Positions 2,403 to 63,003 of a stretch of 64,000 nt of DNA are shown piece by piece. Below the pieces are notes generated by a model. The model was not told where the DNA came from and did not search any database. It saw only the letters and a list, made by a program, of their open reading frames with translations. Position 1 is the stretch's first letter; each line of letters starts with the position of its first letter. This DNA comes from Flavobacteriaceae bacterium. Lineage in GTDB: Bacteria > Bacteroidota > Bacteroidia > Flavobacteriales > Flavobacteriaceae. Both the position numbers and the translations under genes were made by a program. The DNA lies in assembly GCA_009926065.1 (NCBI GenBank), contig RFPP01000002.1, forward strand, positions 29,713 through 93,712, read 5' to 3'.

Positions 2403-3103
2403 TCTACCGTTTTGTTTTTATTATTGGTGTCACTTTCAATTAAACCATCACGCAAACGGATTACTCGGTGAGCATATGCCGCAACTTCTTCCTCGTGAGT
2501 TACAATAATTACTGTATTTCCTAATTTATGAATGTCACCAAATAATTTCATTATTTCTTCCGATGTTTTACTATCTAAATTTCCAGTAGGTTCATCTGCA
2601 AGGATAATTGAAGGCCTGTTAACCAGTGCTCTGGCAACCGCAACACGTTGACGTTGTCCTCCAGAAAGTTGGTTGGGTTGGTGGTCCATTCTATCAGCTA
2701 ATCCTACTTGATTCAGTACTTCTTCCGCTCTAATCATACGTTCGGATTTTGAATATCCTGCATATATCATCGGTAAAGCAACATTGTCTAAAGCGGTTGT
2801 TCTTGGCAATAGATTGAAAGTTTGAAATACAAAACCAATTTCTTTATTACGAATTTCAGCTAGTTCATCATCGTGCATTTTACTTACATCTTTTCCGTTC
2901 AAAATATAACTTCCTGATGTTGGTGTATCCAAACAACCTAATAAATTCATTAAAGTTGATTTTCCTGAACCTGAGGGCCCCATTAAAGCAACATATTCTC
3001 CTTTATTTATTTCTAAATCAATTCCTTTTAGAACATAAACAAATTCATTTCCTAGAACGAAATCTCTTTTTATTTTGGTAATTTGAATTAGTGGTTTTGC
3101 CAT
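2399..3103 (-). CDS. ABC transporter ATP-binding protein (LolD/MacB-like)
   Basis: [47 protein letters not shown]; 4-nt overlap with pduO. Confidence 0.92.
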
Positions 3104-3215
3104 TTTTTTATTTGGAATTCAATTGGTGTTAGTTTTTGTATTTTATTTTAGGGGTTAAAAGTACAAAAATGAATCATGGATTTGTTAATTCCTAGATTTT
3201 TTTAACGTTTCGATT

Positions 3216-3710
3216 TTATACTCGAATGGTGAAATGTTCTTTTACTTGTTCTTTTCGAATAAATGCTAATCCAAATGAATAGGTGTCAATTGTAACATTA
3301 AAATTAGAACTTACAACAACTGATTTCCATTGTATTTCAGTTGCTTTGGAATAATGAGGATTTTCGAAAATAAAACAAGTTTCATTATTAGCCAAAGTAA
3401 TAATTGACTCTAATTCAATATTTTGATCATTTAAATAAGTCGAATCTATATAAATAAAATCAACTTTTAAAGTTTCATTTTCTTTATTTTCCGAAATATA
3501 AATCCCTTTTTCAAACTGGAAATAATGAAACAATCGATTTAAAAATTTTCCTTTTTTAGTCTTTGTTTCCAAATTCGGAAAGTAAGGAGATAAGTTTGTT
3601 TTGTCATAAAAACATTTGGTTACCAATAAAAAAACAAATGGTGAATGAACCCCATGTTCGTTTTTGGAGTTCCAGAGAAATTTCAGATATGATATTATTA
3701 GGTGTATCAC
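3216..3710 (-). CDS. Shortened class I SAM-methyltransferase-like protein
   Basis: N-terminus (NEHGVHSPFVF) and C-terminus (VTIDTYSFGLAFIRKEQVKEHFTIRV) resemble a conserved Bacteroidota methyltransferase family; no glycine-rich SAM motif is visible. Confidence 0.6.
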   Translation of the reverse strand: MIHLIISYLKFLWNSKNEHGVHSPFVFLLVTKCFYDKTNLSPYFPNLETKTKKGKFLNRLFHYFQFEKGIYISENKENETLKVDFIYIDSTYLNDQNIELESIITLANNETCFIFENPHYSKATEIQWKSVVVSSNFNVTIDTYSFGLAFIRKEQVKEHFTIRV

Positions 3711-3813
3711 AGATTATCACTAAGTTTGGCACAAAATTATATAATTAAATAAAAGAAAGCTATGATAAACTAAGTGCCCTATGTTAGTGAATCTTCCTTA
3801 AATTCTAAATAAA

Positions 3814-5676
3814 TCACCCTTCCAATTTGCTAGAAAGTTCAAACCATCTTACCTCTTTTATTTCTATTTTATCGATGATATTTTTCAATTCGTTTGCCTT
3901 TTTTTCAATATCATTGGAGTCTATTTTTCCCTCAGAGAATAATTGCTCAATTTTGGCTTTTTCAATTTCTAAATCTTTGATCTCTCTCTCAATTTTCTGA
4001 TATTCTTTCTGCTCATTAAAGGTCAAATTTCCCACTGGATTATTTTGCTTCCAATCTTTTTTCTCTGTTTTATTGTACTCTTTTTGAGCGACATCCACAC
4101 TATCTTCATAGGCTCTAAAATCAGAGTAATTTCCCGGAAAATTATCTATTTCTCCTTGACCTCTAAACACAAACAAATGGTCTACAATTTTATCCATGAA
4201 GTAACGGTCATGAGAAACCACAAGTAAGCAACCAGGAAAATCCAATAAAAAACTCTCTAAAACATTTAACGTTACAATATCTAAGTCGTTTGTTGGTTCA
4301 TCAAGAATTAAAAAGTTAGGATTCTGAATTAAAACCGTACATAAATATAAACGTTTCAGTTCGCCACCACTCAATTTTTCAACGTAATCGTATTGTTTTT
4401 TGCTATCAAATAAAAATCGTTCTAACAATTGAGAAGCCGAAATAATTTTTCCTTTCGTTAACGGAATATACTCCCCATATTCTTTAATAACATCAATTAC
4501 ACGTTGTGCCGGTTTAGGATTGATTCCACTTTGAGTGTAATAACCAATTTTAATGGTGTCTCCTACAACTACTTTTCCATTATCAGGTGGTAATGTACCT
4601 GTCAATAAATTTAAAAAAGTAGATTTACCAGTACCGTTTTTACCTATAATCCCAATACGTTCTCCACGCTGAAAATCAAAACTGAAATTGTTTAAAATTA
4701 CATGGTCCTTGAATTTCTTTGAAACCTTGTGAAGCTCTATAATTTTGCTTCCCATACGTTCCATATTAATTTCTAATTCCACCACATTTTCCTTTCTTCG
4801 ACTTTGCGCTTTCTCCTTAATTATATAAAAATCATCTTGACGAGATTTCGATTTAGTAGTTCTCGCTTTTGGTTGGCGACGCATCCATTCTAATTCCTTT
4901 AAAAATAGGTTCTGTGCCTTATCAATACTCGAATTTTCAGAAGCTATTCGCTCTTCTTTTTTTTCTAAATAATAGGAGTAATTTCCTTTGTATTGGTATA
5001 TTTTTCCGTTGTCCAATTCAATTATTTCATTACAAACACGCTCTAAAAAGAAACGGTCGTGGGTTACCATAAACAACGTAATATTTTCTTTAGCAAAATA
5101 ACTTTCTAGCCATTCAATCATCTCTAAATCTAAGTGATTCGTTGGCTCATCAAGAATTAGTAAATCGGGGCGATTGATTAATATAATTGCTAATGATAAT
5201 CTTTTTTTCTGTCCGCCAGATAGATTTTTAACTTTCAATTTAAAATCCTCCAACTTCAATTTGAACAAAATTTGCTTGTATTGTGTTTCAAAATCCCAAG
5301 CATTATGTAGGTCCATTGCATCAAATGCCTTTTGATAGGAATCTTGGTCTTCAGGATTTTCTAAAGCTTTTTCATAAGTCTCAATCACCTTTAAACTCTC
5401 ATTATCTGATGCAAAAATGCACTCTTCAATAGTTAATTCTTCCTGCAATTTATTATCTTGAGATAAAAATGCCATTCTAATGCTCTTTCTCAAAACCACT
5501 TGCCCAGTATCCGGTTCTTCAAAACCATTAATGATGTTCATGATGGTGGTTTTTCCCGAACCATTTTTGGCTATGAATGCAATTTTTTGGTCCTTATTGA
5601 TACCAAAAGACAGGTTTTCAAAAAGTGTTTTTTCTCCAAATGATTTAGAGATATTTTCAACAGATAAATAATTCAC
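3814..5676 (-). CDS. ABC-F family ATPase (Uup-like)
   Basis: Two ABC domains (AKNGSGKTT/LSGGQKKR; GKNGTGKST/LSGGELKR), no TM segments, C-terminal coiled coil. GTG start at 5676 (VNYLSVENISK) preferred over the ORF-track start at 5787. Confidence 0.9.
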   Translation of the reverse strand: MNYLSVENISKSFGEKTLFENLSFGINKDQKIAFIAKNGSGKTTIMNIINGFEEPDTGQVVLRKSIRMAFLSQDNKLQEELTIEECIFASDNESLKVIETYEKALENPEDQDSYQKAFDAMDLHNAWDFETQYKQILFKLKLEDFKLKVKNLSGGQKKRLSLAIILINRPDLLILDEPTNHLDLEMIEWLESYFAKENITLFMVTHDRFFLERVCNEIIELDNGKIYQYKGNYSYYLEKKEERIASENSSIDKAQNLFLKELEWMRRQPKARTTKSKSRQDDFYIIKEKAQSRRKENVVELEINMERMGSKIIELHKVSKKFKDHVILNNFSFDFQRGERIGIIGKNGTGKSTFLNLLTGTLPPDNGKVVVGDTIKIGYYTQSGINPKPAQRVIDVIKEYGEYIPLTKGKIISASQLLERFLFDSKKQYDYVEKLSGGELKRLYLCTVLIQNPNFLILDEPTNDLDIVTLNVLESFLLDFPGCLLVVSHDRYFMDKIVDHLFVFRGQGEIDNFPGNYSDFRAYEDSVDVAQKEYNKTEKKDWKQNNPVGNLTFNEQKEYQKIEREIKDLEIEKAKIEQLFSEGKIDSNDIEKKANELKNIIDKIEIKEVRWFELSSKLEG

Positions 5677-5767: not shown

Positions 5768-6928
5768 ATGCAATTATCAGTAATCATCCTTAATTATAAT
5801 GTTCGCTTCTTCTTAGAGCAATGTGTTGCAAGTGTTCAAGAGGCACTGACCAACATTGATAGTGAAATTATTGTAGTTGATAATGATTCTTCTGATTATA
5901 GTTGTGAAATGATTAAATCTCGTTTTCCAAACGTGAAACTCATTGAAAATAATTCTAATTTGGGATTTCCAAAAGGGAATAATATTGGTGTAAGTCAGGC
6001 CAAAGGTGATTATATTTGTATATTAAATCCGGATACTGTTGTTGCTGAGGATACCTTCGCTATGATTCTCGCATTTGCTGAAAAGCAAGAAAATCTGGGA
6101 ATTGTTGGATGCAAATTAATAGATGGCTCGGGTAATTTTTTACCAGAGAGTAAAAGAGGGATTCCAACTCCTTTTGTAGCGTTCACTAAAATAGTTGGTC
6201 TTAATAAATTATTTCCAAATTGGGAAATTTTCAATCGTTATTATGCTCAATATTTATCTGAAAATGAAACAGGGAAAGTCGATATTCTTGTTGGTGCTTT
6301 TATGATAATGAAGCGCGATTTATATAATGAAATTGGTGGATTTGATGAAAATTGTTTTATGTATTCTGACGATATTGATTTGTGTTTTATGGCCTTAAAA
6401 ATCGGAAAAAACAATTTTTATTTCCATGAAACTTCTGTAGTACATTATAAAGGAGAAAGCACCATAAAAGACGGTTTGTACATGAAGCGATTCCGAGATG
6501 CGATGCAGTTTTTTTATAAGAAACATTATAAAAGTTCTCCGTTATTTGATTTTTTCATGAAAATAGGAACTTTGTTTTTTTCTTTAATCAAAAAAAATCA
6601 GGGGAATAGTAATCCAATTGAAATTGATGATTATATTTTGATATCTAAGGATGAAAATTTGAAGAATAAATTGGAAAAACAATTGAATAAAAAATTAAAT
6701 TGGGAAACTAAATTAGATTCAAATAGCTTATTTTCGCATGGAAATAATAGTAAAAAGCAAACAGAGATTTTGATTGATAATAACTCATTTTCATTTAAAT
6801 TGATTATTTCATTTATAGAAACATATAACAATCAAGGTTTTACCTTTAAAATTATTCCTAAAAATACTTTATTTATGATAGGAAGTAACAATAGCAACGA
6901 CAAAGGAACAGTAGTAAAAATTGATTAA
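5768..6928 (+). CDS. Glycosyltransferase family 2
   Basis: LSVIILNYN, VVDNDSSD, ILNPDT, DENCFMYSDDIDLC, HYKGES motifs. Confidence 0.9.
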   Translation: MQLSVIILNYNVRFFLEQCVASVQEALTNIDSEIIVVDNDSSDYSCEMIKSRFPNVKLIENNSNLGFPKGNNIGVSQAKGDYICILNPDTVVAEDTFAMILAFAEKQENLGIVGCKLIDGSGNFLPESKRGIPTPFVAFTKIVGLNKLFPNWEIFNRYYAQYLSENETGKVDILVGAFMIMKRDLYNEIGGFDENCFMYSDDIDLCFMALKIGKNNFYFHETSVVHYKGESTIKDGLYMKRFRDAMQFFYKKHYKSSPLFDFFMKIGTLFFSLIKKNQGNSNPIEIDDYILISKDENLKNKLEKQLNKKLNWETKLDSNSLFSHGNNSKKQTEILIDNNSFSFKLIISFIETYNNQGFTFKIIPKNTLFMIGSNNSNDKGTVVKID

Positions 6929-9173: not shown

Positions 9174-9203
9174 GAACGATTTAGTTTATTGAAAAAAATA
9201 CCA

Positions 9204-9274
9204 TAGCCCCGATAGTAGAGGAAATCCCTCGCTTTTTGTGCGAGGATTGAAACGAATAGCGGGAAAAAGCTCTA
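9204..9274 (+). ncRNA. Structured intergenic repeat, copy A (probable Flavo-1 RNA motif family)
   Basis: TAGCCCCGATAGTAGAGGAAATCC-[stem-loop]-GGATTGAAACGAATAGCGGGAAAAAGCTCTA; conserved flanks shared with three other copies in the window. Family name is by recall, not by a covariance-model search. Confidence 0.7.
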
Positions 9275-21597: not shown

Positions 21598-22119
21598 ATG
21601 AAAAACTACTTTCAAATAGTCCTTTTGCTGCTTCTATGTACTTCTTTGAAAGGACAAGTTAAAAATGTATTCGATGTTGCTCGAAAAGGAACCTTATCAG
21701 AAATACAAAATATCTACAAACAAAATCCAGAACTTGTAAATGCTATTAATGATAATAAAGCTACGCCCTTAATTTTAGCTTGCTATAGAAATAATGAAGC
21801 CGTAGCATTATATTTATCAGATATAGTTTCAAACATAAATTACAATTCTGGCATGGGAACTGCATTGATGGCAGCAATTATGTCGGGAAATAAAGTAATT
21901 ATAGAGAAATTAATTTCAAAAAAAGCAGATTTAGATCAGCAAGATATTCAAGGAAAAACGGCATTAATCTATGCTGCTTTTAATAATAATTTTGAAGTTG
22001 CTCAGTTGCTTGTTAAAGCGGGTGCGAATTCTAAGCTTGCTGATAATGAAAAAAGAACCGCATTAGATTACGCAAAATTTAATAAGAATACCCAGTTAAT
22101 CATATTATTAGATAAATAA
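21598..22119 (+). CDS. Exported ankyrin-repeat protein
   Basis: ATG 21598 gives a Sec signal (MKNYFQIVLLLLLCTSLKG-Q); ankyrin repeats TPLILAC, TALMAAI, TALIYAA, TALDYA. Confidence 0.9.
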   Translation: MKNYFQIVLLLLLCTSLKGQVKNVFDVARKGTLSEIQNIYKQNPELVNAINDNKATPLILACYRNNEAVALYLSDIVSNINYNSGMGTALMAAIMSGNKVIIEKLISKKADLDQQDIQGKTALIYAAFNNNFEVAQLLVKAGANSKLADNEKRTALDYAKFNKNTQLIILLDK

Positions 22120-22144
22120 AACACAACCATTCAATTAAAAAATT

Positions 22145-22903
22145 ATGAAAAAACTTTACTTTGCAATTGCCTTATTAGTTGGGCTAAATGTCTCAATGGC
22201 ACAAACAAAATCCACTGGAGTTGTAAATTTAAATAGTTTAATGACTCTAAAAATTGATTTGAATTCAGCCACATCAACTGTTACAATAACACTAACTGGT
22301 CCATCCGACCGATGGTTTGGAATAGGATTTAATGCAACTTCAATGTTTAACGGTACGGATTGTATATACTATACAACCTCATTAGTAGATTCAGTTATAA
22401 CAGGCCAATCTTCACCCTCAACTGATACTACAAACGAATGGACTGTAGTTAGCGATAATATAATATCAGGCACAACAAGGTCTCTTGTAATTACTAGAAA
22501 TTTTGTTGGTGGAATAGGTGATTATACTTTTAATTATAATAATAATACTTTAAATATTATTTGGGCTTATGGATCAAGTGTAACAATGTCACAACATTCA
22601 GGCATAGGTAGAGGCTCGAGTAATTTAGGATTTACACTTGGGGTTCATGATTTCTCTTCTTTAGATAACATTACAATTGCTCCAAATCCTTCTAATGGTA
22701 TTTTCAAAATTACAAAAAATATTCAAACTTCCATTTCTAAAGTTACCGTATTTGATATCAATGGAAAGGTTCTAAAAGTGATTGATTCAGAATTAAGCTT
22801 AGATTCAATACAAATGAATTTATCAGATTTTTCTAAAGGGGTTTATTTTGTAGAAATCAGTAATGATATCGATAAAGTAGTTCGCAAAATAGTAATTGAT
22901 TAA
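22145..22903 (+). CDS. T9SS type-A cargo with DOMON-like domain
   Basis: Signal peptide; WFGIGFNATSM and IIWAYG...QH DOMON strands; C-terminal IAPNPSNGIF...FDINGK...LSDFSKGVYFVEI...RKIVID type-A CTD. Confidence 0.82.
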   Translation: MKKLYFAIALLVGLNVSMAQTKSTGVVNLNSLMTLKIDLNSATSTVTITLTGPSDRWFGIGFNATSMFNGTDCIYYTTSLVDSVITGQSSPSTDTTNEWTVVSDNIISGTTRSLVITRNFVGGIGDYTFNYNNNTLNIIWAYGSSVTMSQHSGIGRGSSNLGFTLGVHDFSSLDNITIAPNPSNGIFKITKNIQTSISKVTVFDINGKVLKVIDSELSLDSIQMNLSDFSKGVYFVEISNDIDKVVRKIVID

Positions 22904-22922: not shown

Positions 22923-22956
22923 AAAAACTCTATTTTTTGAAATAGAGTTTTTTTTT
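22923..22956 (+). terminator. Rho-independent terminator after DOMON gene
   Basis: AAAAACTCTATTT / AAATAGAGTTTTT stem followed by a T-run. Confidence 0.75.
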
Positions 22957-23483: not shown

Positions 23484-24359
23484 ATGAAAATTAAGAACTT
23501 ATTGTCGATCATTCTAGTCTTTTGTGCTCTCGGTTCTACAAAGGCACAAGATGATTTATTAAACCAATTGGACGCTGGTGCACCAAAACAAGATAATATA
23601 GAAATAGCAGCATTCAAAGGCCTTCAAATTTGCAATATGCAATCCACAAAATTGCCAGGTAAAGGAGAATTTTATTTCATAGTTTCACATCGTTTTGGAG
23701 ATTTAGCACAAGGAATGGAGAATTTTTTCGGATTGGATAATGCTTATACTAAATTAGGAGGAATTTACGGAGTTTCTAATTGGTTTGCTATTAGCGCTTC
23801 ACGACATACTTTTCAAAAAACATTTGAATTGGCTACTAAATATAAAATAGCAAATCAGGAAGAAGAGGGATTTCCGCTTACCTTAGTAGGTTACAATACA
23901 ATGGATATCAATAGTGAATTGAAAAAGAATGATATAATGCCTGGATTACAATTCAATCACCGATTGGCATTTACAACTCAATTATTGGTTTCTAGAAAAT
24001 TCAATGATTCTTTTTCATTTGAAGTAGCTCCAATATACGTTCATAAAAATTTATATGATGGAATTTTAGATCAAAAATCGACCTTATTGTTGGGAACAGG
24101 AGCTAGATATAAAATTGCTAAGCGATTAAGCTTAAATTTAGAATATGCAGCTAGGTTAAATCTTCCAGAAGGATTTGTTTCAAATTATAGCAACCCACTA
24201 ACTTTAGGTTTAGATATTGAAACTGGTGGTCACGTATTCCAATTGGTATTCTCAAACAGTCAAGCTATGAATGACGTAGCTGTATTTACTAATGCAAATG
24301 GGCGTTGGGATGGCACTAAACAATTGTATTTTGGTTTTAATATGTACAGAGTTTTTTAA
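23484..24359 (+). CDS. Outer-membrane beta-barrel, DUF5777-like
   Basis: Signal peptide ending AQDDLL, SHRFG, GLDIETGGHVFQL, amphipathic strands, C-terminal YFGFNMYRVF with terminal Phe. Confidence 0.82.
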   Translation: MKIKNLLSIILVFCALGSTKAQDDLLNQLDAGAPKQDNIEIAAFKGLQICNMQSTKLPGKGEFYFIVSHRFGDLAQGMENFFGLDNAYTKLGGIYGVSNWFAISASRHTFQKTFELATKYKIANQEEEGFPLTLVGYNTMDINSELKKNDIMPGLQFNHRLAFTTQLLVSRKFNDSFSFEVAPIYVHKNLYDGILDQKSTLLLGTGARYKIAKRLSLNLEYAARLNLPEGFVSNYSNPLTLGLDIETGGHVFQLVFSNSQAMNDVAVFTNANGRWDGTKQLYFGFNMYRVF

Positions 24360-24718: not shown

Positions 24719-25261
24719 ATGAAAAAAATAATCTTATTTACGTTATTATTAGTTGTAAACATAACTTTGGCGCAAAGATTGTTAACTCGTTCTGGGGAAA
24801 TTAAATTTGATGCATCTATGCCGAATTTAGTTGAAATTGCTGGAAAAAGCAACACTGTTTCAGCAATTTTAGATCTCCCAACTGGACAATTTGCAACAAG
24901 TGTGATAATTAAATCGATACGTTTCAAAATACCTTTAATGGAGGAACATTTTAATGAGAATTATATGGAATCTTCTAAATTTCCTAATTCTACATTTAAA
25001 GGAAAAGTTATAGGTTTTGATGCTACAAAATTATCTATTAATAAAGTTGCTTTTGATATTGAAGGCGATTTAACTATTCATGGAGTAACTAAGAAAGTAA
25101 AAACTAAAATCTATTTATCTTCAAATGGAAGTAAGGTTGCTGCAACAGGAAATTTTACGGTTCATGCACAAGATTATGGAATTGAAATTCCAAAACTTGT
25201 AAAAGATAAATTTGCTGAACAGATTAAAGTTAGCTTTAATTTCGATTTAGATTCAAAATAA
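24719..25261 (+). CDS. YceI family protein
   Basis: Signal peptide; LMEEHFNENYMESSKFPNSTFKG, GDLTIHGVTKKV, DYGIEIP. Confidence 0.9.
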   Translation: MKKIILFTLLLVVNITLAQRLLTRSGEIKFDASMPNLVEIAGKSNTVSAILDLPTGQFATSVIIKSIRFKIPLMEEHFNENYMESSKFPNSTFKGKVIGFDATKLSINKVAFDIEGDLTIHGVTKKVKTKIYLSSNGSKVAATGNFTVHAQDYGIEIPKLVKDKFAEQIKVSFNFDLDSK

Positions 25262-27188: not shown

Positions 27189-27256
27189 TATGACGTTATT
27201 TCCCGCTATTCGCTATATCCACGCAAACACGTGGGATATCGCTACTATTGGGGCTA
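27189..27256 (-). ncRNA. Structured intergenic repeat, copy B (probable Flavo-1 family)
   Basis: Reverse complement TAGCCCCAATAGTAGCGATATCC(C)ACG-TGTTTG-CGTGGATATAGCGAATAGCGGGAAATAACGTCATA; shortest and most diverged copy. Confidence 0.65.
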
Positions 27257-27284
27257 ATTATTACGTTATTTATTCAATAAAATA

Positions 27285-30200
27285 TTATCTTTTAAGCGTA
27301 AAATGACCTTTTGCGGTTCTACCATCTTCAAAATAAATAGTATACCAATAATCATCTGATGGCAGGGGTTGACCATTAAAAGTTCCATCCCAACCTTTAC
27401 TGATAGGGCTTAATTCTTTCAATAATTTACCATAACGGTCAAAAATATAAATCGAAGTATTATAATTTTTTGTTGTAGTTAAACCTAGAACATTCCAAGT
27501 ATCGTTGAATCCATCAGCATTTGGAGTGAAAAATTTTGGAATACCAATAACATTAATTATTTGAGATGTTGTTCCACAACCATCCAGGTCTTTAACATAA
27601 ACGGTATGAACACCTGGAGCGACATCAGTAAAAATATTTATTGTTTGATATGCATTTGGATAATCTAAACTGAAAACATAATTGCCTAATCCTGTTACAT
27701 TTATTATTACAGTATTATTTTCACTCAAATCCATTATTGTTGGCATTTCAAAATGTGCTGCATCTGAAGCTATTACAGTAATTGTTCTAATTCTAAAACA
27801 ACCTGAAGAATTAATTACTTTAACGGTATAAATCCCTTCGGTATTTACATTTAATGTATAAGATGTTGCAGTTGGTATTACCACTCCATCTTTATACCAT
27901 TCATAAGTATAATTTGTTATTGGAGTTCCATCGGTTATTCCTGCATTCAATAACACAAAGAAAGTTGGATCATTACTACAAACTAATGTTGAAGTTTGTA
28001 ACTCAATCACCGGCACCGGATTTACAGTAAATGTAATTGTTTTAGTTAATTTACAAGTTGGATTAATCGGATTGTAAACAACAATTTTAATGTTCTTTGT
28101 TAATGTTACTGGCAATGGATTAGGCAGTGGTGTTGATAAAAGTACATTATTTTCATCATAATATTCAAACGCCATTCCTGACGGTTGATTAAAAGTTACA
28201 ATATCATGAATCGCTTGCGAAGTAGTAAAATCAAACTGACCGTTTTGCAATGCAGGGTCAGTTTCATCATCACAAATAGTAGTCAACGAAGCAGGTATTG
28301 TAAAATCAATGGGTGATTTATCAACTGTAAATTGAATAGTTGTATCATACCAGCAAGCTTGTGGCGTGGTATTGGTTACAACCGCTCTAATCGTTTGTGA
28401 AGTTGAGGAGAATGTTGCTGGAAATGGACTTGTAATTAAGTTATTATTTGAATCTCTCAGCGGGTTATTTGAAGAATCAAAATAAGTGACCGCAACTCCA
28501 GTTTGCCCTAGTAATAAATCGCTTTCTAAGTTAGCAGTATTAAAATTAAAAATACCGTCTGTATTATCGTCACATTGTCTAGGTATATTCACAGTATGTG
28601 CAAAAGGTTTTGCCTGAACATTTAAAGTAACCCAGGGTCCTAAGCCATAACAAGCATTCGTTAAATCGCTATCTACTCTCACCCAAATATTTTGAGTTGA
28701 GGGATATCCTATGTTTCTATAGTTGGTTAAATTAGTTATCTCATTTTGTTGTGCTAAAGCATCAGCTCTATTTCTGTAATATTTAATAAAATAATTTCCA
28801 GTTGATGGTAATAAAGCTCTAATTGTTGGTTCAGTAGAACTAAAATCGAAGGATGCAACACCATCACGGTCATTATTGTTTGCATTGTTATTACCATTAA
28901 TATCTAAAAAATCATCGCATACCGCAGGCAAAGTAATATTATAGGTACTTGGAATATTTGGCGCAGCAACTTTTAAAGTTATTTTTGCAACTCTATAACA
29001 GCCATTAACAGTAGTTACTCTTGTCCAAATGTACATTAGGCTAGGAGTAGTATTTGTAAAAGCAAGTGGAGTAGTTATTTGATCAAAGGTCGGATTTGCG
29101 TTAGCTCCAGCCAAAGAAGTATAATAAGTAAATGTCTCATTTGCCGAATTAGCTGAAATTTGATTATTATTTACAGTCAAATTGAAAGCGGTAATTGCAT
29201 CTAAATCATCGTCACATTGAACTATTGTAATGTCATTAATTACAGGTAATGGATTTACAATTACCTCCGAAATATTGGTAGAAACAGTTCCACAATTTCC
29301 ATTGGCATAAGTGGCAACACAATAATAATATAAAGTTCCTACTACAGAAGTTATTGGGGTATAACTGAGTGAAGTTGCCCCTGAAATTATTGTTCCTCCT
29401 GTATAGGAATTAACAGTATTAGAATACCATTGATAAGTTGGAGTTCCAGTACCATTAATGAAGGCGGTTGTTAAATTAACCGGAGTGTTATTTATACAAA
29501 TAGACTGACTCGCTAATGGTTGTATGCTAACTGATGGATTATTAACTGTTTGAACATTTACTACAGGACTTGTTACTAAACATCCTAATCCAGATTGAGC
29601 AATTACACAATAGTAAGATTGGGTACCTACATTTGAAGTTGAAGGTGTGTAATTTGCATTTGTTGCTCCTACTATCGAGGGGTTGGGAGAGGTATTATAC
29701 CATTGGTAATAATAAGTTCCCACTCCTCCTGTTGGAGTTACAACCAAATCAGTAGGGGTTGTTCCTTGGCAAATAATTTGATTATTTGGGGTAATCGTTA
29801 CAGTTGGATCAGCGACAACACGAACTAAAGCGGTATTTGTTGGTACACTTCCACAATCTAAACCTGAAAAAGAAACCGTTGCATAATAATAAAAGTCGCC
29901 TCCAATATTGAAAGTTGGAGTGAAATAAGAAGTGTTTGTAGCACCTGAAATAGCATTACCACTGGTTGTATTGTTAGTACTTGTACTGTACCACTGAATT
30001 GATGGTGTTCCTAATCCTCCTGAATAAGCTATCGTAAATGGAGCAACAGCTGCTCCCACACAAATATCTTGAGTTGTTAAAGGTTGAGTGGTTATGGTTT
30101 GAACAGGATTTACAACTAAATTAAAGGTAGTAGTTAAAAAACACCCTGAGGCTGCCATAGTTAACCTTACATAAATTATTCTATTTCCTGTATTTATGGA

Positions 30201-32213
30201 AGTGATACCATTTTGACCCAAATTAGCATCATTCTGAGAGGTATGATAAGTAACATTAACACCAGTTTGTGAACCCAATACTTCACTATTTTTTAATAAT
30301 AAGTTGAAAGTTGCAGTTCCATTTGTCGCACTTCCGTCAACGGCATCATCACATTTTGAAAAATCAGTAATTGCATTTATAATTGGAACTGCTGAATTAT
30401 TTACATTAACTGTAGACGATACTAATGGACAAGCTCCAGTGGCAGGAAAACTATATGTATATATCCCACCTGCGTCTACCGCTGGATTAAAAACTCCAGT
30501 TCCAGAACTTAAAACTGGACTCCATGTACCTCCAACTTCTGCGGTACTTCCTAACAAACTGAATAAATTATAAGAAGGTGTAGTTACACACGATGAGGTA
30601 TTTGTGCTAACTCCAGGATTTTTAATTTGCTGAATAGTTACATTTACTTTTACACTTATAGTAGTTAGTGAAGTATTACAAGATTTTGTAAACGTGTATA
30701 TGTATTCCCCAGGTAAATTAATTGAAGGATCAAAAATATTTCCATTTAGTGGGGCTCCACCCGCTGGAACAGTCCATGTTCCACCTGGTCCAGGATTTCC
30801 ATTAATTACCGTGAATAAATCTCTAGTACTATTGGAACAAACTGTGACATTTGTATCCTGAGGGGTACTTCCAAAACCAGAATAGTAACCTGCAAATCCA
30901 ACAGCTGATCCCTGAAATCCAAAAACCCCAACGGCTAAAGGTCCTGTTGAAGTAATATTAAGATTTCCAGATTGATTTGAAACTCTGTAAGATACCCAGT
31001 CGGTATTTCCCAAAACTGCTTGAGCTTGGGATGTAGGTACAGCAACTCCATTAATTGATATTGTTGCGTTAGAGTAGGTCAACATCATTAAGTCAGTTGT
31101 GTAAGTATTGGTTCCTATTTGATTTACATTGGGAATATTAACAGAATTTTGGAAGAAACAGCTCAAAGGAGGTATAAAATTTAATCCGGAGGTAGCAGTG
31201 TCTGAACCCCCACCTAATAATTGATATGCGAAAACAGGCTTACTTGATCGAACATATATATTACTATTATTTGTGCCTTGATAATAAGAATTAGGAACTA
31301 AATAATATTGGCCAGCATTTAATGTAGTTACCGGAGTTGTACTTCCATTTACAAAAATAGCTGTGTTGTCTTCGTGAGCAACTATTAAGGGATTTTCCAT
31401 AGCAGGACTACCATTTCCTTCTATAAATATATAATCGGTTCCAATTTGGGTTGCAGAAACTATTTGGTCTAAAGTTAGGTCAGCCCGACCATTTGCAATA
31501 CCACCTAGTGCATTTCCAGTATTTACAGAAACAGGTTTATCTGAAGTGATTAAACCGCCTATAATACCATCTAGATTAGCAGTTACATTACTGTATCCAC
31601 TAAATACAATGCACTCTCCAGCATTTAATGTAAATGTTTGTGTGTCGGCAGTTATATTTCCAGCACCACTTGAAAAAATTACCCCAGTATTATAATTTGA
31701 TAAAGTTACCGTAGTATTATTTTCAGTTGCCATAACACTGGCTACAAAGTTTTTTCTATTGTCTTGACTTTCATTAATTGTACATCCTAATCTAAAACTT
31801 GTTCCAATTCCTGGTTTTCCTTTTGAAATAATAGTTTCGGCATGACTTGCATGTCGCATTCTAAAACTAACATAAAAATCTTTTGGTCCTTGAAGAATTA
31901 CTCCTCTTCCTGAAACAACGGTATTTACATCACTAAGACTTAAAAACATTTTTGTAGGTTGTCCAGTACCTATTGTAAAAAAAGCTGGGCTGGTTGCCGA
32001 AATAGTAAACGGAGAACCGGCATAAGGTGTTCCATTTCCATCAGTTGCTGTTACTTGAAACGGAGTAGTTTCATTGGTTGACATGTAGATATATTGGTCA
32101 GAAATAGCAGTGTTATCTCTTGAATGTAAAGGCGGTATCCAGTGTTTATTACTCAACTGAGAAAATGAAATCGCAGTAGCGAATAATAAAAACAATAATG
32201 CTAATTTTTTCAT
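27285..32213 (-). CDS. Large T9SS type-B cargo (IgGFc-binding-like N-terminal domain, Ig-like repeats, gliding-motility CTD); probable adhesin
   Basis: ATG 32213 gives a signal peptide; repeated ICxG...YQWY...GAT...YTP...YYYC and CDD..DG..xF(N/D) modules; CTD IPKFFTPNADGFND...FDRYGK...WDGTFNG...DDYW...GHFTLKR. Confidence 0.9.
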   Translation of the reverse strand: MKKLALLFLLFATAISFSQLSNKHWIPPLHSRDNTAISDQYIYMSTNETTPFQVTATDGNGTPYAGSPFTISATSPAFFTIGTGQPTKMFLSLSDVNTVVSGRGVILQGPKDFYVSFRMRHASHAETIISKGKPGIGTSFRLGCTINESQDNRKNFVASVMATENNTTVTLSNYNTGVIFSSGAGNITADTQTFTLNAGECIVFSGYSNVTANLDGIIGGLITSDKPVSVNTGNALGGIANGRADLTLDQIVSATQIGTDYIFIEGNGSPAMENPLIVAHEDNTAIFVNGSTTPVTTLNAGQYYLVPNSYYQGTNNSNIYVRSSKPVFAYQLLGGGSDTATSGLNFIPPLSCFFQNSVNIPNVNQIGTNTYTTDLMMLTYSNATISINGVAVPTSQAQAVLGNTDWVSYRVSNQSGNLNITSTGPLAVGVFGFQGSAVGFAGYYSGFGSTPQDTNVTVCSNSTRDLFTVINGNPGPGGTWTVPAGGAPLNGNIFDPSINLPGEYIYTFTKSCNTSLTTISVKVNVTIQQIKNPGVSTNTSSCVTTPSYNLFSLLGSTAEVGGTWSPVLSSGTGVFNPAVDAGGIYTYSFPATGACPLVSSTVNVNNSAVPIINAITDFSKCDDAVDGSATNGTATFNLLLKNSEVLGSQTGVNVTYHTSQNDANLGQNGITSINTGNRIIYVRLTMAASGCFLTTTFNLVVNPVQTITTQPLTTQDICVGAAVAPFTIAYSGGLGTPSIQWYSTSTNNTTSGNAISGATNTSYFTPTFNIGGDFYYYATVSFSGLDCGSVPTNTALVRVVADPTVTITPNNQIICQGTTPTDLVVTPTGGVGTYYYQWYNTSPNPSIVGATNANYTPSTSNVGTQSYYCVIAQSGLGCLVTSPVVNVQTVNNPSVSIQPLASQSICINNTPVNLTTAFINGTGTPTYQWYSNTVNSYTGGTIISGATSLSYTPITSVVGTLYYYCVATYANGNCGTVSTNISEVIVNPLPVINDITIVQCDDDLDAITAFNLTVNNNQISANSANETFTYYTSLAGANANPTFDQITTPLAFTNTTPSLMYIWTRVTTVNGCYRVAKITLKVAAPNIPSTYNITLPAVCDDFLDINGNNNANNNDRDGVASFDFSSTEPTIRALLPSTGNYFIKYYRNRADALAQQNEITNLTNYRNIGYPSTQNIWVRVDSDLTNACYGLGPWVTLNVQAKPFAHTVNIPRQCDDNTDGIFNFNTANLESDLLLGQTGVAVTYFDSSNNPLRDSNNNLITSPFPATFSSTSQTIRAVVTNTTPQACWYDTTIQFTVDKSPIDFTIPASLTTICDDETDPALQNGQFDFTTSQAIHDIVTFNQPSGMAFEYYDENNVLLSTPLPNPLPVTLTKNIKIVVYNPINPTCKLTKTITFTVNPVPVIELQTSTLVCSNDPTFFVLLNAGITDGTPITNYTYEWYKDGVVIPTATSYTLNVNTEGIYTVKVINSSGCFRIRTITVIASDAAHFEMPTIMDLSENNTVIINVTGLGNYVFSLDYPNAYQTINIFTDVAPGVHTVYVKDLDGCGTTSQIINVIGIPKFFTPNADGFNDTWNVLGLTTTKNYNTSIYIFDRYGKLLKELSPISKGWDGTFNGQPLPSDDYWYTIYFEDGRTAKGHFTLKR

Positions 32214-32245
32214 AATAGTAATCACAAAGTGTAAAAATAGAATAT

Positions 32246-38278: not shown

Positions 38279-38363
38279 TAGGAGCTAATCCGGCTATCAT
38301 TCCAAATCCGCTTTATTTTTGCTTACGCAAAATAAAGCGGGATTTTCCCTTCTATCCGGGCTA
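38279..38363 (-). ncRNA. Structured intergenic repeat, copy C (probable Flavo-1 family)
   Basis: Reverse complement TAGCCCGGATAGAAGGGAAAATCC(C)GCTTTATTTTGC-GTAA-GCAAAAATAAAGCGGATTTGGAATGATAGCCGGATTAGCTCCTA. Confidence 0.72.
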
Positions 38364-38481
38364 AAAATAATGATGATTTTTTTATTTTATATTCAAATTA
38401 TTTCAAACAATACTACTTCAATTTTGAAATAAAAAGTGAGTGCTTTGATAATATAATTACCAATAGAAAGTTGTCTTATAA

Positions 38482-62796: not shown

Positions 62797-62918
62797 GCTT
62801 ATTTTGTTTAATTTATCCTTTAATAAAGGTACATAATATTATTTCAATGTTAGAATTAGAGACTTTTTTTTGTGAACAATTTAATTAACAAAAAACAGTC
62901 TTATAATAAGTAATTTTT

Positions 62919-63003
62919 TAGCCCTGATAGAAGGGAAAATCCCTCAATATTGCTTAAGATGAAGCAATATTGAGGATTGGAAGGATAGCAGGAATAGCTT
63001 CTA
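62919..63003 (+). ncRNA. Structured intergenic repeat, copy D (probable Flavo-1 family)
   Basis: TAGCCCTGATAGAAGGGAAAATCC(C)TCAATATTGCTT-AAGATG-AAGCAATATTGAGGATTGGAAGGATAGCAGGAATAGCTTCTA. Confidence 0.72.

Follow-up and report, generated by a model that had tools for sequence, protein, structure and literature searches.

The window analysed in this study is a stretch of 64,000 nt from contig RFPP01000002.1 of a Flavobacteriaceae bacterium (GCA_009926065.1), and its subject is a gene for a small protein with a single DOMON domain followed by a C-terminal sorting domain of the type IX secretion system (T9SS), referred to below as the DOMON protein. Directly upstream of this gene lies a gene for a periplasmic ankyrin-repeat protein, and downstream of it lies a set of four genes for a membrane-anchored protein with an oligonucleotide/oligosaccharide-binding (OB) fold, an outer-membrane beta-barrel protein of family DUF5777, a lipoprotein monoheme cytochrome c and a YceI-like periplasmic protein (Table 1). 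The analysis described below leads us to propose that the DOMON protein is a b-type cytochrome that is either displayed at the cell surface or released from it and that ends an electron-transfer module of the cell envelope, possibly with the ankyrin protein as a helper in heme loading; we put the probability of this reading at about 0.55. Heme binding by the DOMON protein with Met67 and His151 as the axial ligands, which is predicted from the sequence, appears quite probable.

The N-terminus of the protein, MKKLYFAIALLVGLNVSMA followed by QTKS, was judged by eye to be a signal of the signal-peptidase-I type, with a KK n-region, a hydrophobic core and a cleavage site between SMA and Q20. The residues around the site, A19 and Q20, were invariant across 83 homologues, and residues 1-18 had a predicted local distance difference test score (pLDDT) of less than 50 in the full-length AlphaFold2 (AF2) model. 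The search against Pfam assigned residues 30-143 to the DOMON family PF03351 (E 4.9e-8; 33.7 bits, with a cut-off of 32.7; positions 2-124 of the 124 in the profile), and the same match was precomputed for most of the homologues. The C-terminal domain (CTD) matched Por_Secre_tail (PF18962) at residues 180-251 (E 1.2e-14, 54.7 bits against a cut-off of 27) and the type A sorting domain TIGR04183 of NCBIfam (50.5 bits against a cut-off of 23), with the tail match ending at residue 251 of 252. The CTD also matched, in sequence, the CTD of NucA within the T9SS translocon complex (8GLK_D), and its fold was similar to those of 8GLK_D and 8GL6_D in a Foldseek search (target-normalized TM-score, TMt, 0.79-0.81). 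No further domain, and nothing catalytic, was found with Pfam and NCBIfam. The architecture proposed in the initial annotation, that of a secreted protein in which a single DOMON domain is followed by a type A CTD and no catalytic domain is present, was thus borne out, and the two residues that it had singled out were found where it had placed them in the 252-aa open reading frame (ORF): W57-F58-G59-I60-G61-F62 is followed by N-A-T-S-M67, and I139-W140-A141-Y142-G143 is followed by S-S-V-T-M-S-Q-H151.

To describe the conservation of these residues, homologues were collected in two sets, 285 in a word-index database and 604 among 1.84 billion cluster representatives (with the DOMON part alone as the query). 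In 83 close homologues (64-99% identity), Met67 was invariant and His151 was present in all, being shifted within a longer loop in two of them. Because such close homologues are uninformative, we aligned 34 diverse DOMON segments with 22-67% identity to the query and a mean column identity of 34%. Only nine positions were conserved in at least 90% of this alignment, namely G52, P53, M67, R112, T113, R118, F129, A141 and H151. Of 198 domain instances, taken from 150 representatives, 190 had a Met in the first loop, 177 a His in the second and 173 both residues when loop shifts were allowed. The number of homologues together with the invariance of Met67 and His151 is a result well beyond chance; as judged from the alignments, the retention of the pair is far above the chance expectation for such rare residues. 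Four acidic residues, D72, D82, D94 and D126, were conserved at 68-78% throughout the family, the eukaryotic relatives included. Two of them lie in D82-S-V and D94-T-T, which we take to fit the Bacteroidetes O-glycosylation motif. In a published model of CYBDOM DOMON domains, an acidic pocket behind the heme is a candidate metal site.

The predicted fold is that of a DOMON beta-sandwich. The full-length AF2 model had a pLDDT of 77, with 80-93 in the DOMON part, and a DOMON-only model computed from the diverse alignment had a pLDDT of 95.2 and a predicted TM-score (pTM) of 0.89, with a block-mean pLDDT of about 97 in the loops bearing Met67 and His151. The eight best fold matches in the PDB were all DOMON-fold chains (Foldseek probability 1.00). 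They included human DBH's DOMON domain (query-normalized TM-score, TMq, 0.70-0.71), the cytochrome b domain of the pyrroloquinoline quinone (PQQ)-dependent pyranose dehydrogenase (PDH) from Coprinopsis (6JT6, TMq 0.64), the cytochrome domain of cellobiose dehydrogenase (CDH; 1D7C, 1PL3 and 1D7B, TMq 0.60-0.64) and NxrC of nitrite oxidoreductase (TMq 0.53). The putative carbohydrate-binding protein 4JPQ gave a weaker match (TMq 0.51), and no fold other than DOMON had a comparable Foldseek score. When the sequences of the PDB were searched, the single protein retrieved CTD matches only, and the family profile retrieved nothing, including any CDH chain, at E values up to 10. The comparison with CDH was therefore made through a purpose-built family alignment, for which the sequence of 1D7C was checked against the PDB, CDH-type cytochrome domains were gathered and aligned, and the two profiles were compared by hhalign. 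Over 110 columns, M67 was placed on Met65, R118 on Arg120 and H151 on His163 of the CDH cytochrome family; this alignment is weak alone (P 0.055, probability about 1%), and the fold match agrees with it (TMq 0.62-0.64 for 1D7C/1PL3 and 6JT6). Local motifs also agreed, with RWFGIGFNATSM corresponding to KWIGIALGGAM and IIWAYG...H to LAWAFS...H. The CDH cytochrome family PF16010 itself gave no match at E values up to 1. The DOMON protein is outside that family (PF16010, CAZy AA8) and is a member of PF03351, the family that holds the CYBDOM DOMON domains. The view taken in the initial annotation, that Met67 and His151 are retained ligand positions equivalent to those of CDH, is in agreement with the conservation and the column match described above, and the superposition on the CDH cytochrome domain, a check set beforehand, gave the model-based TMq values listed for that domain. 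In known DOMON domains, Met and His are kept in the heme-binding ones of CDH and CYBDOM (PMC10691727).

The commonest relatives have an architecture identical to that of the DOMON protein (about 250 aa, one DOMON domain and the CTD), and other relatives carry the DOMON domain at the N-terminal tip of an Ig-like (Ig_7, PKD) stalk with the CTD at the end. The closest non-bacterial relatives are multi-DOMON proteins fused to electron-transfer modules. These are giant and apparently eukaryotic proteins in which between 5 and about 20 DOMON repeats of the same subtype stand in tandem: P0166 has cytochrome b561 (direct BLASTP E 8e-18), P0122 and P0255 have the NOX-like combination of Ferric_reduct and NAD_binding_6 (phmmer E 8e-52 for P0122), and P0199 has about 18-20 repeats with Cyt-b5 and an FAD domain. 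In P0199, most of the repeats have Ala in the Met column, with a Met one position off. Read from their domain composition, all of these proteins are built to pass electrons through a membrane to a DOMON domain that faces outward. The DOMON protein itself diverges faster (63-87% identity) than the products of the flanking genes (radical SAM 78-96%, MiaB-like 90-99%; loci L001-L021), as would be expected of a protein exposed at the surface.

The genes next to the DOMON gene, which had no part in the initial annotation, were compared among related loci (numbered with the prefix L). The search for these loci, with the closer alignment, gave 74 loci, most of which were CTD-only matches and were set aside. 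In all 24 related loci with upstream sequence, the ankyrin gene was directly upstream of the DOMON gene; in the window it ends 25 bp before the latter. Its product has its own signal peptide, which ends before Gln, and about 155 mature residues, and signal peptides were found in all orthologues. The adjacency was kept at considerable divergence, down to about 33-42% identity, with identities of 47% in L021, 43-56% in L082, 40-46% in L080 and 33-40% in L081. In L072, from a metagenome-assembled genome of Crocinitomicaceae, the two genes overlap and the DOMON protein has an Ig-like extension. A LILAxY motif in the ankyrin protein, including the Tyr, was invariant across orthologues at 29-95% identity. 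This Tyr was considered as a heme ligand like that of Campylobacter Cj1386, and we keep it as a lead only.

The four-gene set was found downstream of the ankyrin-DOMON pair in the window and in most loci. Its first gene, for the OB-fold protein, travels with the pair in L004-L021 (L020 excepted), L080 and L082, and the gaps between the pair and the set shrink to 0-12 bp in L021 and L082. In L080, the order is permuted and the set is upstream of the pair; the membership kept despite the changed order argues for a functional linkage of the set and the pair. The CxxCH motif of the lipoprotein cytochrome c and an MP motif downstream of it were kept in 14 orthologues, down to 34% identity. In L021, a gene for a Rieske [2Fe-2S] protein with a twin-arginine translocation (Tat)-like signal (5996-6421, +) lies directly upstream of the ankyrin gene, giving a run of seven genes: Rieske, ankyrin, DOMON, OB-fold, DUF5777, cytochrome c and YceI. 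In L072, a gene for a T9SS-secreted PQQ-type glucose/sorbosone dehydrogenase (PF07995 and a CTD; 3094-4599, -) lies two genes from the pair, and by analogy it recalls the AA12 dehydrogenase of fungi, in which a cytochrome b DOMON domain is part of the enzyme itself (6JT6). Searches of the window and of all the other loci found neither the Rieske gene nor the dehydrogenase gene, and both are single cases outside the conserved set.

Table 1. Features of the DOMON locus, in window coordinates
Feature	Position	Strand	Basis or remark
Class B (B12-binding type) radical SAM protein, 732 aa	19336..21534	+	PF04055
Periplasmic ankyrin-repeat protein	21598..22119	+	Ank_2, Ank_4 and Ank matches; likely start MKNYFQ
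DOMON protein gene	22145..22903	+	ATG to TAA, 252 aa; Pfam and NCBIfam matches
Signal peptide, residues 1-19, predicted cleavage between SMA and Q20	22145..22201	+	by inspection; conserved in homologues
DOMON beta-sandwich domain, residues 20-170	22202..22654	+	PF03351, AF2 model, Foldseek
Met67 codon, proposed axial heme ligand	22343..22345	+	loop between strands 58-62 and 72-76
His151 codon, proposed second axial heme ligand	22595..22597	+	loop between strands 135-142 and 156-162
Type A T9SS C-terminal sorting domain, residues 178-252	22676..22900	+	PF18962, TIGR04183, 8GLK_D/8GL6_D matches
Terminator-like hairpin, 13-bp stem and U-run	22923..22956	+	fold -11.2 kcal/mol, z -3.1
Protein with N-terminal membrane anchor and OB-fold, 131 aa	23087..23482	+	PF12869, weak tRNA_anti-like match, E 6e-4
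DUF5777 outer-membrane beta-barrel protein	23484..24359	+	PF19089, E 1.6e-83
Lipoprotein monoheme cytochrome c (CTGCH), 113 aa	24371..24712	+	CxxCH; weak PccH cytochrome c match
YceI-like periplasmic protein, polyisoprenoid/quinone-binding fold	24719..25261	+	PF04264, E 2.3e-17

The DOMON gene is represented in freshwater metatranscriptomes, libraries in which DNA carry-over is possible: two contigs that are 100% identical to the window lie within the gene (22296-22515, X25; 22205-22407, X28), and two others, derived from related strains, reach across both the ankyrin and the DOMON gene (21599-22881, X29; 22017-22338, X26). The terminator-like hairpin lies just 3' of the DOMON stop codon and is below the G+C rule of the consensus scan. 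A scan for sigma-70 promoters gave sites no more numerous than in shuffled sequence and was not used.

Further upstream, the radical SAM gene precedes the pair in L001-L020 and is absent beside it in L021, L072 and L080-L082. For this reason, we rejected it as a partner acting, for example, in cofactor or peptide modification; it is probably a neighbour in the closer lineage only, outside the core. Its product has the cluster motif CX4CX2C (GCYWGKCTFC), which is unusual in comparison with CX3CX2C, and gave distant matches only, to PhpK and to C-methyltransferases of ribosomally synthesized and post-translationally modified peptides (RiPPs). Elsewhere in the window, the Flavo-1 RNA motif (Rfam RF01705) occurs in four copies above the gathering score, at 9201-9270 (+), 27195-27259 (-), 38283-38366 (-) and 62916-62999 (+); together with homologues labelled Flavobacterium, they indicate a lineage that bears the T9SS, and with the runs in which the sequence occurs they place the window in a Flavobacterium-like organism from freshwater. 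The ORF at 27285-32225 (-) encodes 1646 aa, and its orthologue in L004 has IgGFc_binding, FIDD and CHU_C (type B T9SS) domains, so that its product is another probable T9SS cargo near the DOMON gene.

If the DOMON protein is a surface cytochrome, its maturation and action may be envisaged as follows. The protein would be exported by the Sec pathway, the signal peptide would be cleaved to leave an N-terminal Gln20, and the DOMON beta-sandwich would fold in the periplasm. There it would take up one heme b with Met67 and His151 as ligands, as in the CDH cytochrome domain and the CYBDOM DOMON domains, and, by analogy with ankyrin-repeat helpers of other hemoproteins, the ankyrin protein may assist this loading or the maturation before secretion. 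The type A CTD would then send the folded protein through the T9SS, and the role of the DOMON domain would be one-electron transfer beyond the outer membrane. The products of the four-gene set, namely the YceI-like isoprenoid/quinone binder, the lipoprotein cytochrome c, the DUF5777 barrel and the membrane-anchored OB-fold protein, are the putative electron source. The proposed order is from a quinone or isoprenoid carrier (YceI) to the lipoprotein cytochrome c, then to the DUF5777 barrel and finally to the surface DOMON domain. Candidate acceptors, by analogy with the CYBDOM ferric reductases and with fungal CDH and PDH, are Fe(III) or a secreted oxidoreductase. A more extensive proposal is that, in aerobic freshwater Flavobacteriia, a previously unrecognised six-gene envelope module leads electrons out of the respiratory quinone pool as far as the cell surface, the module being made up of the inner-membrane-anchored OB-fold protein, the YceI-like protein, the lipoprotein cytochrome c, the DUF5777 barrel, the ankyrin protein as a heme chaperone and the T9SS-displayed DOMON b-type cytochrome; this we regard as doubtful.

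Several observations weigh against a surface cytochrome supplied with electrons by its neighbours. The DOMON match in Pfam clears its cut-off by 1 bit only, the hhalign alignment to the CDH family is weak when taken by itself, the profile search of the PDB sequences was empty, and the top structural match, the DOMON domain of DBH, is a non-heme one. The long Ig-like stalks of some relatives would keep the heme far from the membrane, which would make direct electron transfer awkward. In the window, the four-gene set does not follow the DOMON gene directly but after the hairpin and 184 nt, so that the pair and the set may be transcribed separately there, and L001/L020, L072 and L081 lack the set next to the pair. 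These last two points would also suit a pair and a four-gene set that are functionally unrelated, with the DOMON cytochrome acting alone, for example in the scavenging or production of reactive oxygen at the surface. We consider such independence unlikely, since the units adjoin in most loci, with the short gaps of L021 and L082 and the reversed order of L080 among them, and this side-by-side pattern across loci is hard to account for without selection for linkage.

The initial annotation had left open the choice between a cytochrome and a hemophore, and the gene context favours the former. A hemophore would capture free heme, or heme derived from a host or from algae, through the Met/His pair and pass it to an outer-membrane receptor. 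Met/His ligation is also found in heme-transport proteins such as IsdE, and Porphyromonas captures heme with T9SS cargo. One small T9SS-exported domain without a catalytic partner, the resemblance of the long-stalked relatives to 'fishing' devices, and a divergence faster than that of the neighbours (65-87% against 84-99% identity), which fits an exposed binding protein, would all be consistent with this role. However, no TonB-dependent receptor, heme ABC transporter, heme oxygenase or other heme-uptake gene adjoined the gene in the inspected loci, where the neighbours are redox proteins (cytochrome c, YceI and Rieske), and no known hemophore (HmuY, HusA, HasA and similar) was matched in the sequence and fold searches of the PDB. 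Electron transfer is favoured over heme capture because electron-transfer modules are joined to the DOMON domains of the nearest non-bacterial relatives and because redox genes, instead of uptake genes, surround the DOMON gene; heme capture therefore ranks below a cytochrome role and appears rather unlikely. The least likely of the alternatives is a DOMON domain that binds no heme and serves as an adhesive module or binds a sugar, a metal or a small molecule, with the Met and His being structural or metal-binding. The non-heme DBH domain as the best fold match, the weaker match to 4JPQ, the conserved D72, D82, D94 and D126 as a possible metal site, and the absence of Met or His from some tandem-repeat relatives could be explained in this way. 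Against it, Met and His occur together in most of the domain instances counted above, whereas the pair is lost in sugar-binding DOMON domains and DBH (PMC10691727), and the neighbourhood is one of redox proteins and not of glycan use, with no gene for a carbohydrate-binding module (CBM) and no polysaccharide utilization locus (PUL) nearby.

Heme-binding DOMON domains are well studied in fungi, where CDH passes electrons to lytic polysaccharide monooxygenases (LPMOs), and in plants and animals, where CYBDOM proteins are ferric reductases. The literature that we searched contained no stand-alone bacterial heme DOMON protein exported by the T9SS and none strictly paired with a periplasmic ankyrin protein inside such a gene set. 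The linkage of a putative surface DOMON heme protein with an ankyrin gene and envelope redox genes suggests an undescribed route of electrons to the cell exterior. If the DOMON protein is a surface b-type cytochrome, abundant freshwater Flavobacteria would gain extracellular one-electron chemistry that is not now attributed to them, for example to reduce iron, to activate secreted oxidases or to deal with reactive oxygen; the T9SS would be seen to carry a cofactor-loaded redox protein; and the pairing with the ankyrin gene would offer a tractable system for the delivery of heme b to proteins outside the cytoplasm. Were the doubtful conduit from the quinone pool real, it would represent a pathway of extracellular electron transfer of a new kind, with no relation to the multiheme MtrCAB type, and its cytochrome would be the first cofactor-loaded one to be exported by the T9SS. 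A literature search for "DUF5777" gave no papers, and the module suggests a first functional context for this family.

Among known systems, the cytochromes of fungal CDH and PQQ pyranose dehydrogenase (AA8; 1D7C, 1PL3 and 6JT6) share with the DOMON protein a secreted DOMON beta-sandwich of similar size. In the DOMON protein and the CDH cytochrome alike, the loop following W-[IF]-G-I holds the Met and that following [IL]-x-W-A-[YF] the His, and both proteins would have an N-terminal Gln after signal cleavage. The DOMON protein differs from these cytochromes in its lack of a PF16010 match and in a sequence identity of only about 15%; moreover, it is bacterial, its predicted export is by the T9SS, and it has no flavin or PQQ dehydrogenase in the same chain, its putative partners being the products of separate genes. 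By sequence, the closest known domains are the eukaryotic DOMON domains of the CYBDOM/AIR12 type, which likewise belong to PF03351, have the conserved Met and His with an Asp a few residues past the Met, and face the cell exterior, as is predicted here. Whereas the eukaryotic domains are covalently tethered to a membrane module that feeds them electrons, the DOMON protein stands alone and is predicted to cross the outer membrane by the T9SS, so that its electron supply would have to come from separate proteins.

The genes beside the DOMON gene also have known counterparts. In Cbp2D and Cbp2E of Cellvibrio, Saccharophagus and Teredinibacter, YceI-like X158 domains are combined with c-type cytochrome domains, and these proteins are thought to carry electrons outward (PMC8981238). 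The same elements, a YceI-like isoprenoid/quinone binder and a small CxxCH cytochrome, both extracytoplasmic, are found here beside the DOMON gene. In contrast to this arrangement, Cbp2D and Cbp2E fuse the domains with CBM2 in one polypeptide, have no DOMON domain and are not exported by the T9SS, and no CBM or LPMO gene was seen near the DOMON gene. As regards the ankyrin protein, ankyrin-repeat helpers of hemoproteins are represented by AnkB of Pseudomonas, which occurs with KatB. In Campylobacter, the ankyrin-containing protein Cj1386 binds heme and delivers it to the catalase KatA (PMC11442138). The client proposed here is a secreted DOMON protein and not a catalase, and the ankyrin protein, unlike Cj1386, has a cleavable signal peptide; in both cases, however, a small bacterial ankyrin-repeat gene adjoins the gene of a b-heme protein, a putative one in the present locus.

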